Assembly: GCA_963843145.1 (NCBI GenBank)
Contig: CAWJJC010000021.1
Span: 64,001 to 128,000 of the forward strand
Reading direction: 5' to 3'
DNA from: an uncultured delta proteobacterium
Lineage (GTDB): Bacteria > Desulfobacterota > RBG-13-43-22
Length of the DNA stretch: 64,000 bases
This document shows, in pieces, positions 1-52,566 of the stretch (positions within the stretch are counted from its first letter, which is position 1; every line of letters starts with the position of its first letter). Position numbers and translations under genes: made by a program. The notes beneath the pieces were generated by a model, which searched no databases, was not told where the DNA came from, and worked only from the letters and a program-made list of their open reading frames with translations.

Positions 1-41
1 AGCTGTTTATTAAAAAAGTCAACGAATTTATTTGGCACGAT

Positions 42-41968: not shown

Positions 41969-42130
41969 ATGAAAAAGTATGTTTGTGATGTTTGCGGCTA
42001 TGTGTACGACCCGGCAGCCGGGGACCCGGAAAACGGGGTTGCTCCGGGAACGGCCTTTGAGGATCTACCGGACGATTGGCTTTGTCCCTTGTGCGGGGTC
42101 GGCAAGGATCAGTTCTCTCCGGAAGACTAA
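41969..42130 (+). CDS. rub: rubredoxin (53 aa; absent from the ORF track)
   Basis: manual translation [53 protein letters not shown]; RBS AAGGAGG. Confidence 0.97.
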
Positions 42131-42143
42131 TAAGGAGCCCGGA

Positions 42144-42725
42144 ATGAAAAAGAAATTTTATTCCACTGCGGTACTGCTGTTTATCCTGGTTTTAGGTCTG
42201 ATCCCCCGCAGCCTGGCTGCCGCCCCGCCCCCCCCGGCCAAGGGAGAGCCCTTTCCGGCCATTACCCTTCCGATTCCCAAAGACGCGGAGGCTAAGAATT
42301 ATCTGGGCCTGACGGGGAGCGGCTCCTTTAAAATTACCCAGGTCAAGGCCCAGGCGGTGCTCATTGAGATTTTCAGCATGTACTGCCCCTTCTGCCAGAA
42401 GGACGCGCCCGGGATCAACGAACTGTTCCAGGCCATCGAAAGGGATCCCGAGTTAAAAGGCCGGATCAAAATTCTGGGTATCGGGGTCGGGAATTCCGCT
42501 TACGAAGTGGGGGTTTATAGAAAGATCTACAACGTTCCCTTCCCCCTCATCCCGGATGAACGTTTTGTCCTGCATCAGGCCCTGGGGGAGACCCGTACCC
42601 CTTACTTCTTCCTGGTAAGCATCAATCCGGGCGGGACCGGGGAAGTGACCTATTCTGAATTGGCCGGCTTCAAGGGGGTGGAATCCTTTTTGGAAATCAT
42701 TCGAAAGTCAGCCGGGATCAAATAG
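42144..42725 (+). CDS. TlpA-like periplasmic thioredoxin
   Basis: signal peptide; FSMYCPFC; cis-Pro motif RTPYF; RBS AAGGAG. Confidence 0.85.
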   Translation: MKKKFYSTAVLLFILVLGLIPRSLAAAPPPPAKGEPFPAITLPIPKDAEAKNYLGLTGSGSFKITQVKAQAVLIEIFSMYCPFCQKDAPGINELFQAIERDPELKGRIKILGIGVGNSAYEVGVYRKIYNVPFPLIPDERFVLHQALGETRTPYFFLVSINPGGTGEVTYSELAGFKGVESFLEIIRKSAGIK

Positions 42726-42734
42726 GAGGTTTTT

Positions 42735-43343
42735 ATGAAGCGCCTGAAAAGTTTATCGGGGTTCCTTTGGGTGGCAGTCCTGTTTTCGCTGGGAGCGGCC
42801 GGGCCGGTTTTCAGCCGCTCCGAGGCCTTTAAGGAAAATATTTATCCGGTGGGCCAACTCAAGCCCACGGACAGTAAACTCAAGGTCAAAGTGGGAGAAA
42901 AGGCCCCGGATTTCACTCTTCCCTCCGTAGGGGGGGAGAAGGTTTCCCTGCACCAGTATCTCGGGAAAAAAAACGTGGTCCTGTCGTTTGTTCCGGCTGC
43001 CTGGACCCCGGTCTGCTCGGATCAATGGCCCGGGTATAATATCACCCAGGGGCTCTTTGAAGAGCATAACGCGATCCTGCTGGGGATTACGGTGGACAAT
43101 ATCCCCACGCTCTTTTCCTGGACCAACCAAATGGGCCGGCTCTGGTTTCCGGTGCTCTCCGATTTTTTCCCCCACGGGGCGGTAGCCGCCCGGTACGGTA
43201 TTCTTCGAACGGACGGCATGGCGGAGCGGGCCCTCTTCGTGATTGATAAGAAGGGGATCATTCGCTATATCGACGTTCACGACATCAACCAGCGTCCTCC
43301 TCTCGAAGCTCTGATGGGGGAATTGGGAAAGCTGGAAAAATGA
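42735..43343 (+). CDS. exported peroxiredoxin (AhpE-like, one Cys)
   Basis: signal peptide; PAAWTPVC; ERALFVIDKKGIIRY. Confidence 0.9.
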   Translation: MKRLKSLSGFLWVAVLFSLGAAGPVFSRSEAFKENIYPVGQLKPTDSKLKVKVGEKAPDFTLPSVGGEKVSLHQYLGKKNVVLSFVPAAWTPVCSDQWPGYNITQGLFEEHNAILLGITVDNIPTLFSWTNQMGRLWFPVLSDFFPHGAVAARYGILRTDGMAERALFVIDKKGIIRYIDVHDINQRPPLEALMGELGKLEK

Positions 43344-47952: not shown

Positions 47953-48745
47953 ATGAAAATTAATCTGGAAATGATTCGGCTGGTCTTCTTTTGGGGAGGC
48001 TTGGTGCTGTACGGGCTGATCGAGTGGCGGATCCCCTACCGCCCCAACACCGTCTCCAAGCCCCGACGCTGGCTGGACAATGTGGGCTTGTCGGTTACCA
48101 ACGGCATCATCCTCTATCTTCTTTTTTTCTCCCTCATCGTCCAAACCGCGGCTTATGTCAGCGAACGGCAGTTGGGGATTCTGAACCTGGTTTCGATGCC
48201 GGCCTGGCTGCGGATCGTCCTCACCGTGGCGGTCCTGGATTTCATGCTTTATATCTGGCATTTCCTGAACCACGAAATGCCCTTTCTTCTGGCGCTTTCA
48301 CCGGGTCCATCACAGCGATTTGAACCTGGATGTCTCCTCGGCCCTGCGTTTTCATCTGGGCGAACTGAGCCTGTCGGCCGTCATCAAGATTTCCCTGATC
48401 TACTTCCTGGGGGCCGATATACGGGGGGTGGTGATTTTTGAAATTCTGGTAGTACTCACCTCTCAATTCCAGCACAGCAACATCCGCCTGCCGGCCTGGT
48501 TTGAAAAACTCTGGCTGGTTTTGTTTGTGCCGCCTTCCATGCACCGTATCCACCACTCGGTGGTGATCAAAGAGCGGAACACCAATTACGGGACCATTGT
48601 TTCCCTGTGGGATAAAATGCTGGGCACCTTTTTGTATAACCTGGACCAAACCCGGATCAAGATCGGCGTGGGGGCCTACCCGAGAGCTGAAAAGGTGCGG
48701 TTTCCCCATTTGCTGGTTATGCCCTTTACCAAAGCGATTCGTTGA
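47953..48745 (+). CDS. sterol desaturase/fatty acid hydroxylase family, +1 frameshift at about 48284
   Basis: removing one T from CCCTTTCTTCTGG restores WHFLNHEMPFFWRFHRVHHSD; QHSN and HRIHH His boxes. Confidence 0.85.
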
Positions 48746-48958: not shown

Positions 48959-49048
48959 TGCCAACCAGGCCATTAGACCCGGTGTCACTGGCTTGCATGG
49001 GCCTTCGTCCCGGCAACCTGCGTGTCACGGGTCAACGCCGCATTAGGT
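48959..49048 (+). other. attC-like site (90 bp)
   Basis: TGCCAAC..TTAGAC......GTCAA..ATTAGGT imperfect palindrome; homologous to 62668-62757(-); R' has ATT rather than GTT. Confidence 0.6.
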
Positions 49049-49061
49049 GAAAGGAGTCCCC

Positions 49062-50159
49062 ATGAAGAACATGATGATTTTGGTATGCATCACATGTTTG
49101 TTTGTATTGTCGGCGGTCTCCGCAGACTCCTGCACGGTGTTCCGACTTAAAGCCAATGACGGATCGATCATGGTCGGACGCTCCATGGAGTTTGCTGTGG
49201 ATCTGAAATACGACGCTATCGTGGTTCCGCGCAATAAGGCTTATGTAAGCTTCGCCCCTGACGGAAAAGAAGGCTTATCCTGGAAAATACGCTATGGCTA
49301 CGTCGGGATTGCATCTTTCGGGATGGAGTTTGGCTTGTCTGACGGGATGAATGAAAATGGACTTGCAGTCGGGCTGCTTTGGTTCGAATCCGACATGAAA
49401 TGGCAGGATGTTGCTGCCGGTGAGATGAAACAAGCCCTCGCCCAGGGTATGGTGGGCGATTGGATTCTGGGCAACTTTGCAACCGTCGAAGATGTAAAGC
49501 GGGAAATCAGGAACGTGAAGGTATTCAATTACACAGATCCTAAAACAAAAATGTCCCCGACCGTCCATTTTATCGTTTATGACGCAAAGGGCGGTTGCAT
49601 CGTGATCGAATATGAAGATGGGAAATGTAACATCTATGACAATCCTCTCGGCATCATGACGAATGCTCCCAGATTCCCCTGGCAATTGACCAACTTGCGC
49701 CAGTATGTCGGCATGACGAGCGAAAAACCGGAGCCCTACCAGATGTCCGGTTTGACGTTTCCGGCGACTGGCCATGGGTCGGGAATGTTCGGCCTTCCCG
49801 GCGACCTTACCCCGCCGAGCAGATTTGTTCGCCTCGCCGTTTTGACCAGGTTCTCCGATATGCAGCCGGACGCCGAAAGAACGCTTAATCTTGCCCAGCA
49901 CATTATCAATACGTTTGATATCCCCTTCGGTATGGTCACCGATACAATGCCGGATAAAAAGATCATTCTTAAGGAATCAACACAATGGGTCACGTTTCGG
50001 GATCTCACCAAACGTATTGTATACTTCAAAACGTACGACAACCAGAATCTTCGGAAAATCGACTTGAAGAAGATTGATTTCTCGGATGGGAAAATAAAGC
50101 GGATTCCCATGTTCGAGGCCTCTGAGATCATCGTGGATATGACTGATCGCGCACGTTGA
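49062..50159 (+). CDS. exported linear amide C-N hydrolase (choloylglycine hydrolase/penicillin V acylase family)
   Basis: signal peptide then CT nucleophile; GRSMEF, DGMNENGL, MTNAP, GLPGD.TPPSRFVR. Confidence 0.93.
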   Translation: MKNMMILVCITCLFVLSAVSADSCTVFRLKANDGSIMVGRSMEFAVDLKYDAIVVPRNKAYVSFAPDGKEGLSWKIRYGYVGIASFGMEFGLSDGMNENGLAVGLLWFESDMKWQDVAAGEMKQALAQGMVGDWILGNFATVEDVKREIRNVKVFNYTDPKTKMSPTVHFIVYDAKGGCIVIEYEDGKCNIYDNPLGIMTNAPRFPWQLTNLRQYVGMTSEKPEPYQMSGLTFPATGHGSGMFGLPGDLTPPSRFVRLAVLTRFSDMQPDAERTLNLAQHIINTFDIPFGMVTDTMPDKKIILKESTQWVTFRDLTKRIVYFKTYDNQNLRKIDLKKIDFSDGKIKRIPMFEASEIIVDMTDRAR

Positions 50160-50366
50160 GTTGACCAGATGAGCGAAGGAGGAGGCAGATAGCGTGTTAA
50201 TCTGGATACATGGGGCACTGTCCTATAAAATAAAATGCGTCCTCTGAAGGAGGGTCGGACCTAAACGAACCAGTTGAAATTCATCGAATTTTAATGATTC
50301 AGGTGCCTATTTAAGGCCATAAAAAGCGCTTTTTGACATCAAAAAGAAGCTTAAAAGCAGGTAACC

Positions 50367-50417
50367 ATGCCCAGAGCCAATCGCTATTTCCTCCCGATCT
50401 GGCCCACCTTTAAATGA
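50367..50417 (+). pseudogene. N-terminal remnant of a RAYT/Y1-type transposase
   Basis: MPRANRYFLP then immediate decay; resembles remembered N-termini of REP-associated tyrosine transposases. Confidence 0.45.
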
Positions 50418-50595
50418 ACATGTTGAGTTGGCACGTAAGCGGCTAGAAGAGATTGGAGGCGACGTATGAGTGAACCTATGGGAGAAGTTTAGCCTTGAAA
50501 TGTTGATAATTCTGGCGACAAAGGCTGGAATGCATGTGATTCTTAAGACAGCGGCGTAGCTGTCCGCCAATTGTTAATTTTTCTCGAGGAAAGTC

Positions 50596-51432
50596 ATGTT
50601 CTGGAAACAATTGTTTTCGCCGGTTAAGGCCATCGAACCCCAGGAGGCTAAGGCCCTCATGGCCGGGTGGCCGGAGGGAACTTATACCCTGCTCGATGTC
50701 CGCCAGCCCGGCGAGTATGAAAAAGAGCATCTTCCCGGGGCCAAACTGGTCCCCCTAGCCCAACTTTCCGACTCTACAAAGGACCTGGACCCCCGGAACC
50801 CCGTCATCGTCTACTGAGCGGTAGGCGGAAGGAGCCGCGTGGCGGCTCAATTCTTGTCGGGACAAGGGTTCGGGGAAGTCTATAACCTCAAGGGGGGCAT
50901 CAAGGCCTGGCAAGGGGTGAAGGCCTTCGGGCCGGTGGAATTGAACTTGGATTTGATTCGTGGCGATGAGAGCCCGCTGGAGATCATTTCCCTGGCCTAC
51001 GGGATGGAAGAGGCCTTGCGCCGGTTTTATGTTTTTTTTAAAGACCGCACCTCCGACGGAGAACTTCAAAAACTCTTAATCCTTTTGGCCTCGGTGGAGG
51101 AAAAACATAAGGAAATTTTGCAGGCCTTGTACCTGGACCTCCCCGATGCCTCCCCGGATTCAAAACCATTGGAGGAGAGGACCCAGGACGAAGTGCTGGA
51201 AGGAGGTTTTCGATTTACGGATTTTATCCGGGAAAATGAACCGCTGTTGAAAAACCCCGCTGCTGTGCTGGAGACCGCCCTGATGCTGGAGACCCAGGCC
51301 CTGGACCTTTACCTGCGATTTGCGGCCAAGGTGGGGGAGGGGGGTACGAAAAACATCCTTTTCCGCCTGGGGGACGAGGAAAAGGCCCACCTGGCCTCCC
51401 TGGGCCGGTTGCTGGATGAAACGTTAACGTGA
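50596..51432 (+). CDS. selenoprotein: rhodanese + ferritin-like fusion (Sec at 50815-50817)
   Basis: ORFs 50596-50817 and 50839-51432 share a frame; TGA occupies the rhodanese active-site Cys position (VIVY-U-AVGGRS); C-terminal half has EEKH and EEKAH motifs. Confidence 0.88.
50832..50848 (+). promoter_or_regulatory. bacterial SECIS-like hairpin
   Basis: GAGCCGC-GTG-GCGGCTC perfect stem; G-containing loop about 21 nt after the UGA. Confidence 0.75.
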
Positions 51433-51462
51433 AAATCACCTGCACTTTTTGCTTGACATATA

Positions 51463-51489: not shown

Positions 51490-51948
51490 ATGAACAAATC
51501 GGACGCCTCCAGATTTTCCCTTGTTGGGAAATTCGGCCGGGTGGCAAAACTCTGGGAGCAGTTGGACAAGAAGCCGCGCCAATTCGGGACCGGGGAAGAC
51601 TTCTCCGGCTCTGAAATCCACCTGATTGAGGTAGTTGGACAGAACGAGGGGCTCAGCGTGACTGCCCTGGCCAAACGGTTAGGTATAACCAAGGGTGCGG
51701 TATCTCAAACACTGAAAAGGCTGGCGGCTAAAGAGATCATTGTGAAAGAGACCGATCCGTCCAACACGTCGCGGGTAACCGTGAATCTTTCTACGAAAGG
51801 GAAAGTGGTCTTCTTCGCGCATCTGCACTGGCACGAGACCATGGATGGCGGCTTTCGGGACTATTTCCTGGGCCTGTCTGAGGAGCGGATTCGGTTCCTT
51901 GAGGAGTTTCTGACCATACTGGAGCAATTCTTAAAAAGAAGGAAATAA
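51490..51948 (+). CDS. MarR-family regulator
   Basis: SEIHLIEVVG, SVTALAKRLGITKGAVSQTLKRL, LSTKG. Confidence 0.92.
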   Translation: MNKSDASRFSLVGKFGRVAKLWEQLDKKPRQFGTGEDFSGSEIHLIEVVGQNEGLSVTALAKRLGITKGAVSQTLKRLAAKEIIVKETDPSNTSRVTVNLSTKGKVVFFAHLHWHETMDGGFRDYFLGLSEERIRFLEEFLTILEQFLKRRK

Positions 51949-51999: not shown

Positions 52000-52566
52000 A
52001 TGAGATGGACAATCAGCGGCCAGGGGGTGGACCGAATGCCCGGTTTGGCTTTCCGGATGATGAAGGTTCTGTTCGATGTCAGGGACAGACTCGTGTCGGT
52101 ATCCTCCCTACTGGAGGAGTTCAATATTAAACCGGGACAGACCGTGGTCGACTATGGCTGCGGTCCGGGATCCTACCTCCAGCGCGCCTCCGAATTGACG
52201 GGACCACAGGGACGGGTATTCGCTCTCGATATCCACGAACTCGCCATCCAGGCAGTGAAGAAACGGGCCGATAAAGAACGGCTGACCAATGTGACCGCGG
52301 TACTAACAGACCGCAATAAATGTTCCTTGGCCGACGAAACGGCCGATGTCCTCTACGCGCTGGACATGTTTCATATGGTGAGCGATCCCAGGGGCCTGCT
52401 GAGGGACTTGAACCGGATATCGAAAAAAAGCGGATTTCTTTTCATAGACAACGGCCATCAAAGCAGAGACGAGGCCCGATCAAAGATTATTGATTCGGGT
52501 GAGTGGGAGCTGGTTGAGGAAAAGAGGCGTTATATGAAATGGCGTCCACTCATAAAGGAAGCGTAG
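52000..52566 (+). CDS. class I SAM-dependent methyltransferase
   Basis: VVDYGCGPG; RBS AGGAGG. Confidence 0.88.
   Translation: MRWTISGQGVDRMPGLAFRMMKVLFDVRDRLVSVSSLLEEFNIKPGQTVVDYGCGPGSYLQRASELTGPQGRVFALDIHELAIQAVKKRADKERLTNVTAVLTDRNKCSLADETADVLYALDMFHMVSDPRGLLRDLNRISKKSGFLFIDNGHQSRDEARSKIIDSGEWELVEEKRRYMKWRPLIKEA

Follow-up and report, generated by a model that had tools for sequence, protein, structure and literature searches.

Selenocysteine (Sec)-containing rhodaneses were reportedly first predicted by Zhang and Gladyshev in 2005 (Bioinformatics). The accessible part of a 2026 review lists five Sec-rhodanese forms, two of them with a UxxG motif in which U is Sec (PMC13188914). One form, a UxxG "rhodanese-related sulfurtransferase" of the COG0607 type, appears there as form 2 and in the available part of PMC9312934 as "COG0607 form 1", and the available text of PMC1976440 counts eight Sec-rhodanese genes in Olavius symbionts. 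According to the accessible sections of PMC1088965, a selenoprotein is recognised by an in-frame UGA that aligns with Cys in at least two homologues, and a bacterial selenocysteine insertion sequence (SECIS) by a stem-loop just past the UGA whose small apical loop includes a G. Here we describe a gene of this kind in a 64,000-nucleotide stretch of DNA from an uncultured delta proteobacterium (contig CAWJJC010000021.1), hereafter called the window. Two annotated open reading frames (ORFs) in the window are very probably a single gene for a 278-residue selenoprotein, whose UGA at codon 74 would be read as Sec through tRNA-Sec and SelB under the direction of a hairpin. As judged from its sequence, the protein is a fused-domain variant of the catalogued Sec-rhodanese kind, hidden by ordinary gene calling.

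The elements of the predicted gene are as follows:

50586..50590 (+): Shine-Dalgarno-like GAGGA, 5 nt before the ATG, read from the sequence
50596..51432 (+): predicted complete selenoprotein gene of 278 codons plus terminal TGA, encoding a rhodanese and a rubrerythrin-type diiron domain (translation with TGA as U, Pfam, full-length Cys homologues)
50815..50817 (+): UGA codon 74, predicted to be read as Sec, first residue of the active-site loop U-A-V-G-G-R-S (aligned with the Cys of homologues)
50832..50848 (+): bacterial SECIS-like hairpin GAGCCGC-GUG-GCGGCUC, with a 7-bp G-U-free stem and a GUG loop, inside codons R79 to Q85 and formed by the codons of S-R-V-A-A (fold, relatives, resampling)
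51430..51432 (+): terminal stop, likewise TGA, without a hairpin after it, read from the sequence

From the ATG at 50596 to the terminal TGA the forward frame contains a single internal stop, the TGA of codon 74, and translation table 11 yields two ORFs from it, of 73 amino acids (aa; 50596..50817) and 197 aa (50839..51432). Aligning the read-through protein with 16 full-length homologues (277-283 aa, 52-61% identity) places a Cys in the TGA column in all 16, within the motif V-[YH]-C-A-x-G-G-R-S-R. The original prediction, made by a model from the DNA letters, had claimed that one 278-codon frame is divided by a TGA at the rhodanese catalytic position; the frame, the Pfam domains and this alignment confirm it. 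Both features named in the accessible sections of PMC1088965, alignment with Cys and a G-containing stem-loop, are present in the window gene. The five nearest database proteins (79-92% identity) are about 199 aa long and start 2-8 codons past the TGA column, which indicates that gene callers mis-split them in the same way.

We searched 401 genomes of the same phylum, including the window's own, with the read-through protein as query and obtained matches at E ≤1e-30 in 94. Exactly one TGA interrupts 37 of these matches, 53 contain no stop, two contain a TAA (the match reaching the terminal stop) and two a TAG. Loci were retrieved for 90 of the 94; those left out (G006, G264, G259 and G361) include no TGA row. 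The codon at residue 74 in the 90 loci is:

TGA: 37
TGC: 44
TGT: 7
GGC: 1
unaligned, at a contig end: 1

All 37 TGAs fall at the catalytic Cys position, and the proteins that contain them are 33-89% identical to the window protein across residues 1-277, with both flanks of the codon conserved. The expectation that homologues would show Cys or Sec at this site was borne out, as the two alternate at exactly codon 74 (Cys in 16/16 full-length homologues; 37 TGA and 51 TGC or TGT among the loci). On a maximum-likelihood tree of 88 rows and 276 columns, with the Cys column left unmasked and with L075 (a 118-aa lone rhodanese) and L101 (a fragment) omitted, parsimony counts 17 changes between Sec and Cys, and well-supported branches force at least eight. 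The window gene lies within an all-Sec clade of eight. Repeated Cys-to-Sec exchange is typical of catalytic redox residues. Strong conservation together with at least eight Cys/Sec switches marks residue 74 as a catalytic redox centre.

Some individual loci deserve mention. L075 (G032:C6:6022-6360), the lone rhodanese, is 53% identical to the N-terminal domain of the window protein and has a TGA at the catalytic codon, followed by a weak hairpin (4 bp, loop at +24). The Cys form L076 (G214:C40:7475-8269) has one in-frame TAG within its match; in G139, the other row listed with a TAG, the tblastn alignment contains no stop.

The hairpin that follows the TGA begins its stem 14 nt, and its loop 21 nt, after the A of UGA, and it belongs to the minimum-free-energy fold. 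This agrees with the predicted 7-bp hairpin whose loop lies about 21 nt past the TGA, and a SECIS-like hairpin accompanies the TGA forms in general. For each locus we surveyed positions +7 to +42 past the codon (36 nt), scoring an uninterrupted stem of at least 5 bp whose loop starts at +19-22. Such a hairpin occurs in 34 of 37 Sec forms (all except L050, L062 and L075) but in only 7 of 51 Cys forms. It comes in two sequence versions, GAGCCG...CGGCUC, as in the window, and (C)GCAGCC...GGCUGC(G). In both, the 5' arm is the Ser codon AGC, paired with an Ala codon GCU. The Cys forms mostly have GCC or GCG at the partner Ala codon, which leaves a stem of only 3-4 bp. Hairpin loops (GUG, GUA, AGUUG, GGGC, GGUC, CGU, CGUGCC and others) have a G among their first two positions.

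Resampling addressed the constraint that the protein places on this stem. With the 15 aa after the TGA fixed and synonymous codons drawn by the codon usage of the window (n=5000), a G-U-free stem of at least 7 bp arose in 8/5000 resamples, a stem of at least 7 bp with its loop at +19..22 in 72/5000, and a folding energy no higher than that of the native sequence in 56/5000. The 7-bp stem of the window is stronger than the amino acids impose, and it surpasses 99% of the synonymous resamples. The predicted fold places the UGA at the apex of an 8-bp hairpin at 50808-50827 (+), CGUCUACU-GAGC-GGUAGGCG, and a third hairpin, at 50849-50870, abuts the SECIS-like one.

The machinery for Sec insertion is encoded in the window genome (97.9% complete). 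Cut-offs are exceeded by the matches to selA (609.4 bits), selB (368.8 bits), tRNA-Sec (75.1 bits) and selD (395.3 bits), the last of which contains one in-frame TGA, and ARAGORN calls a tRNA-SeC with anticodon tca; the check for these genes that accompanied the original prediction therefore found all four. Across the phylum, selA is present in 371/401 genomes, and it is whole in 35 of the 37 genomes with a TGA form. In the remaining two, G336 (90% complete) is without selA and has a full selB and tRNA-Sec, and G314 (95% complete) has a full selB and only an end fragment of selA. Among fusion-bearing genomes without a detected selA, the codon is TGC in all four where it could be read (G087, G121, G148 and G139); in a further one, G008, the match ends before codon 74.

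The same searches turned up other Sec-related loci. The selD of the window genome (G000:C27:447576-448499, minus strand; locus L010) has its TGA in the context A-A-G-U-A-S-K, followed by a small hairpin, GGUC-CGGGC-GACC; the in-frame TGA and the small hairpin with a G-rich loop suggest that SelD is itself a selenoprotein in this genome. A weak Pyr_redox-type match with one in-frame TGA (G000:C22:290035-290310, minus strand; 27.5 bits) may be a further selenoprotein gene. G336, which belongs to the same genus and has 6% contamination, contains a second, shorter selB-like match (G336:C14:98758-100799; 261.7 bits, model positions 1-342) plus a separate C-terminal piece, with a second tRNA-Sec-like gene (50.8 bits) adjoining, which could reflect a second Sec locus or stem from contamination.

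Several results limit the case for reading the TGA as Sec. No contig from the public reads spans 50815, the nearest pieces ending at 50782 and starting at 50823; conservation of the TGA across 37 species takes the place of a check at read level. Nine public read runs contain at most 0.10 of the sampled words, and one metatranscriptome contig, matching 51144-51439 with 6 differences, neither includes the codon nor demonstrates that this gene is transcribed. The association between hairpin and Sec rests on related sequences: a test on independent pairs (8 pairs) found 5.1 going the same way and 1.1 the opposite way, which is not significant (median p 0.22). The similar hairpin kept by 7/51 Cys forms indicates that the S-R-x-A-A peptide, which by itself tends towards a weak palindrome, dictates some of it. 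Finally, an Rfam scan of 50700-50950 returned no SECIS match and only four chance matches, all with E >1.

The read-through protein joins two domains, each with loop or ligand residues preserved among the 88 relatives of the tree. All of the following lie on the forward strand:

50641..50913 (+): rhodanese domain, residues 16-106 (PF00581, 1.8e-20, 73.7 bits; cut-off 22.2)
50980..51411 (+): ferritin-like (rubrerythrin-type) four-helix bundle, residues 129-272 (PF02915, 1.1e-8, 36 bits; cut-off 22.8)
51007-51009 (+): ligand codon E138, kept in 88/88
51097-51099 (+): ligand codon E168, kept in 87/88
51106-51108 (+): ligand codon H171, kept in 88/88
51199-51201 (+): E202, an invariant residue of the E-G-G motif that separates helices B and C, kept in 88/88
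51289-51291 (+): ligand codon E232, kept in 88/88
51379-51381 (+): ligand codon E262, kept in 88/88
51388-51390 (+): ligand codon H265, kept in 88/88

In the rhodanese domain, D34, R36, E40, Y41, G77, R79 and S80 are invariant or nearly so; G77 and R79, which belong to the loop U74-A-V-G77-G-R79-S80, are kept in 88/88. The PF02915 domain is found in all full-length relatives. E138, E168-x-x-H171, E232 and E262-x-x-H265 make up a complete canonical diiron ligand set, and their retention in 87-88 of 88 relatives supports the diiron part of the fusion that the original prediction had put forward. Y145, D237 and Y239 of the bundle are also nearly invariant. The window protein has zero Cys and no rubredoxin module, leaving Sec74, in the persulfide-carrier loop U-x-x-G-x-R-S, as its only redox-active chalcogen; 57/88 relatives likewise have no Cys apart from residue 74, and none has a conserved second one. 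This excludes an intramolecular disulfide or selenenylsulfide cycle, and a lone residue 74 is consistent with a persulfide carrier or with a residue that interacts directly with the metal site. One locus, L106 (G196:C1, ~49922-50740), has GGC (Gly) at the Cys/Sec position and retains all six diiron ligands, which indicates that the iron domain can persist without the rhodanese nucleophile.

An AlphaFold2 model, built from a 22-row alignment with Cys substituted for Sec, folds both domains as one unit (predicted local distance difference test, pLDDT, 82.1; predicted template-modelling score, pTM, 0.81). Foldseek against the PDB matched the rhodanese domain only (3tp9, 6mxv and 3gk5, and in addition rhodaneses fused to persulfide dioxygenase or persulfide reductases) and found no solved chain with both domains; the rhodanese domain of the model aligns with the solved 3tp9, 3gk5 and 3nt6. 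For the bundle, VIA-align on residues 122-279 gave Z 15-18 with many ferritin-like chains tied, among them 2fzf, PA4880, thioferritin 2vzb, mini-bacterioferritin, TM1526 (1vjx) and symerythrin.

Neighbouring genes in the relatives offer clues to function. We examined the flanks of the 90 loci (1.5 kb in 30, 3 kb in 60) and clustered 415 neighbour ORFs, among which only two partners recur widely. The first is a Pyr_redox_2 flavoprotein of about 375 aa, found with a custom profile in 22/90 loci (14/37 Sec and 8/51 Cys forms), always on the same strand as the fusion gene and on either side of it. Its best NCBIfam match is TIGR03169, "Nterm_to_SelD" (249-282 bits, positions 2-365 of 365, below the cut-off of 310), and its nearest solved relatives are type-II NADH dehydrogenases (NDH-2), FSP1/AIFM2 and sulfide:quinone reductases. 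The second is a membrane protein of 260-285 aa of the FA_hydroxylase family (PF04116) with His-box motifs, found in 17/90 loci, always on the same strand and in 16 of the 17 directly upstream of the fusion gene, 3-80 nt away from it. None of the 90 loci contains the two partners together. Rarer neighbours are a double nitroreductase/SagB-like protein (5 loci), metallo-beta-lactamase-fold proteins (4), histone-deacetylase-family proteins (3) and peroxiredoxins (2), and Ni-superoxide dismutase (SOD), Fe-SOD, rubrerythrin and a TauE exporter occur at one locus each. A complex prediction for the flavoprotein and fusion protein of locus L094 scored 0.00 and is counted neither way.

Protein P0048 (433 aa, on a 220-kb contig) is a case of its own. 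Over its first 137 residues it shows 50% identity to the flavoprotein's N-terminus, and this flavoprotein-like segment runs in frame into a complete rhodanese-diiron protein. It resembles a partner gene that has decayed and become joined to the gene beside it.

In the window itself, the genes nearest the fusion gene are:

47965..48742 (+): FA_hydroxylase-like membrane diiron gene, frameshifted by a 1-nt shift near 48283-48290, 1.85 kb upstream of the fusion gene
49047-50159 (+): choloylglycine-hydrolase-family gene (PF02275, 2.8e-64), between the hydroxylase remnant and the fusion gene
51490..51948 (+): MarR-family regulator, 57 nt downstream of the fusion gene (Pfam; kept in all three species of the genus examined)
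52000..52566 (+): S-adenosylmethionine-methyltransferase-like gene (Pfam; kept downstream in three species of the genus)

Compared with L032's intact orthologue, the two parts of the hydroxylase gene show 55% and 70% identity, and the frameshift may mark a genuine pseudogene or stem from misassembly of a short run of T. A 436-nt gap separates the choloylglycine-hydrolase-family gene from the fusion gene, and no gene of that family is among the recurrent neighbours of related loci. Further off, 3-8.5 kb upstream of the fusion gene, lie two AhpC-type genes, a flavin mononucleotide reductase and a DUF255 thioredoxin-like gene. The description of the fusion gene as near a peroxide-defence cluster is accurate only in a loose sense: the AhpC-type genes are there, at 41979-43343 and so about 7 kb upstream, but this neighbourhood does not recur among relatives. 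A link to the AhpC cluster was considered and is unsupported by the related loci.

What might the fusion do? We tentatively favour a model, more doubtful than the recoding itself, in which Sec carries a persulfide and the diiron site links it to the chemistry of O2 or H2O2. The selenolate of Sec74 would take up sulfane sulfur as an Se-S persulfide, and the adjoining diiron centre would couple this persulfide to O2 or H2O2; the bound persulfide would reduce the diferric site and would itself be what is oxidised. The protein would then be an anaerobe's counterpart of the iron persulfide-dioxygenase/rhodanese fusions, acting much like a rubrerythrin peroxidase in which a rhodanese replaces the rubredoxin domain as the electron-donating module. 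In other lineages the adjacent NAD(P)H flavoprotein would probably feed or reset the system. What it sets out to explain is the combination of a lone, highly conserved Cys/Sec, an always-attached and fully liganded diiron bundle without a rubredoxin module, repeated Cys/Sec exchange and redox partners. The relatives of the rhodanese domain in structure and sequence, which include an iron persulfide dioxygenase fusion (5ve3) and persulfide reductase fusions (3nta, 3icr, 8a56), support the functional model only, as do the flavoprotein beside the gene and the scattered peroxiredoxins, SODs, rubrerythrin and metallo-beta-lactamase-fold genes.

Other observations count against the persulfide-diiron model. 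Ferritin, Dps, bacterioferritin and erythrin chains tie in the structural comparison, so no subfamily can be named for the bundle. In the window genome the flavoprotein partner has no close counterpart (best match 72.8 bits). The FA_hydroxylase, the commonest partner in the window's own clade, is unexplained by persulfide chemistry. A broader claim, that the fusion is a new redox module of anaerobic Thermodesulfobacteriota in which a lone Sec/Cys persulfide is handed to a diiron centre, with Cys repeatedly upgraded to Sec and with two alternative partners, strikes us as improbable as a whole. If true, it would amount to a new enzyme class, whether a diiron oxidase/peroxidase of persulfides or perselenides or a novel electron donor to membrane lipid hydroxylases, and the rhodanese-diiron module might also link to selenium activation.

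Among the alternatives to the persulfide-diiron model, the one that survives best is an electron relay, which we nonetheless consider unlikely. By analogy with rubredoxin, the fusion would shuttle electrons from the NAD(P)H flavoprotein to the membrane diiron oxygenase. Rubredoxin stands between rubredoxin reductase and the membrane alkane hydroxylase, and the two recurrent neighbours of the fusion gene, always on its strand, are just an NDH-2/FSP1-like FAD protein (22/90) and a His-box FA_hydroxylase (17/90), the latter with a counterpart 1.85 kb upstream in the window. Yet no locus of the 90 holds both ends of such a chain, and the window's hydroxylase is frameshifted while its selenoprotein gene is intact. 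Diiron-carboxylate sites are not known to act as electron carriers.

A role in selenium (or sulfur) trafficking has less in its favour, and we hold it to be quite unlikely. Here the flavoprotein would reduce a perselenide or persulfide on the loop, releasing selenide for SelD or sulfide for other acceptors, and the iron domain would act as a sensor or oxidant guard. The flavoprotein's best NCBIfam match is indeed TIGR03169, a domain found fused to SelD, over its full length and at 249-282 bits, although these scores are below the 310-bit cut-off, the function of the model is itself hypothetical, and the nearest solved relatives of the profile are NDH-2 and FSP1 quinone reductases. The partner stands beside 14/37 Sec versus 8/51 Cys forms, a distribution in line with trafficking; against it, Cys-form fusions occur in genomes without detected selA, and the partner was not found in the window genome.

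An equally slim prospect is a donor for repair or assembly, analogous to the YtfE/RIC type of diiron repair proteins, which would supply rhodanese persulfide sulfur and diiron iron to damaged Fe-S or diiron centres. A single chain does combine one sulfur-carrier site with one two-iron site, oxidative-stress genes occasionally adjoin, and the frequent partner is itself a diiron enzyme; but neither RIC nor hemerythrin domains showed homology to the protein, its ligand set matches catalytic sites of the rubrerythrin type, and the neighbourhoods contain no pointers to Fe-S assembly genes.

Far less probable than any of these is that the TGA is a true stop, leaving a broken or split gene (a 73-aa stub and a 197-aa ferritin-like protein from GTG 50839) or a hairpin that terminates transcription after the stub: gene callers do split the nearest relatives identically (about 199 aa, 79-93% identity) and a simple scan flags 50832-50848 as terminator-like with the tail AATTCTTGTC, but the TGA stands at a codon that is Cys in 51 relatives and recurs in 37 species with both flanks conserved as protein (33-89% identity), the stub would be without the catalytic loop, GTG 50839 sits in the hairpin loop, and the T-tail is weak and missing in the second hairpin version. 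We rejected the terminator and split-gene readings on this conservation, the weak T-tail and the Sec machinery present in the genome.

The Sec reading of codon 74 changes how this family appears in databases. Public protein sets hold "rubrerythrin" halves of about 199 aa, and the ESM Atlas contains clusters of such halves; recognising the Sec codon restores a 278-aa protein in at least 37 species of the 401 sampled. The family is widespread, with members in 94/401 genomes of the phylum and 3168 database matches, and through it the rhodanese selenoproteins gain a fused architecture. The recoding itself will not surprise a specialist; it is the diiron fusion, the switching between Sec and Cys and the alternative partners that make the function of the family a well-posed question. 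The two conserved partners provide experimental handles on the coupling of sulfane sulfur, iron and oxygen species in strict anaerobes.

How does the window protein compare with the described Sec-rhodaneses? As far as the accessible texts describe them, it is like the UxxG rhodanese selenoproteins in its single PF00581 domain, Sec at the catalytic Cys, UxxG motif, Cys homologues, hairpin and occurrence in the former Deltaproteobacteria. Unlike the UxxG form listed there, which has PF00581 or COG0607 only, it adds an invariant C-terminal PF02915 diiron domain. The available part of PMC13188914 contains neither "rubrerythrin" nor "ferritin", the available parts of PMC9312934 and PMC1976440 do not contain "rubrerythrin", and our literature search returned no description of a rhodanese-rubrerythrin-type fusion in the portions accessible to it. 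The form 2 example of the reviews, of which we had partial texts, might already have this fused architecture. The Cys-type architecture is present in databases under automatic names such as "rhodanese-related sulfurtransferase/rubrerythrin".

The other catalogued forms, which share a rhodanese fold with Sec within or beside the active-site loop, are more distant. Against form 3 (NF041203, CxU) the window protein scores 32 bits, the cut-off being 115, and it has V-Y before its U. Against form 5 (TsoB, NF045694, a rhodanese/DsbD fusion) it scores 11.8 bits, the cut-off being 805, and it has one rhodanese domain, unlike the two-domain COG2897 type of form 4 as given in the accessible sections of PMC1088965. 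Its motif is Y-U-A-V-G and neither CxU nor UxxxxU.

The C-terminal half of the window protein resembles rubrerythrin and the erythrins (PF02915; TM1526 1vjx, 2fzf, symerythrin 3qhb), with which it shares a four-helix bundle and the E/ExxH/E/ExxH ligand pattern at Z 15-18. It differs from them in the extra invariant Glu, E202, of the E-G-G motif, and from classical rubrerythrin in having an N-terminal rhodanese instead of a rubredoxin-like Fe(Cys)4 module. In overall plan it resembles BpPRF (5ve3) and the persulfide or coenzyme A-persulfide reductase fusions (3nta, 3icr, 8a56), which likewise join a CxxGxRS-type rhodanese to another domain. In those proteins a redox catalyst acts on the persulfide carried by the rhodanese, and its sequence suggests that the window protein may work in a corresponding way. 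There the rhodanese is partnered by a mononuclear-iron domain of metallo-beta-lactamase fold or by a flavoprotein; the partner differs here, since in the window protein it would be a four-helix bundle with a diiron site.

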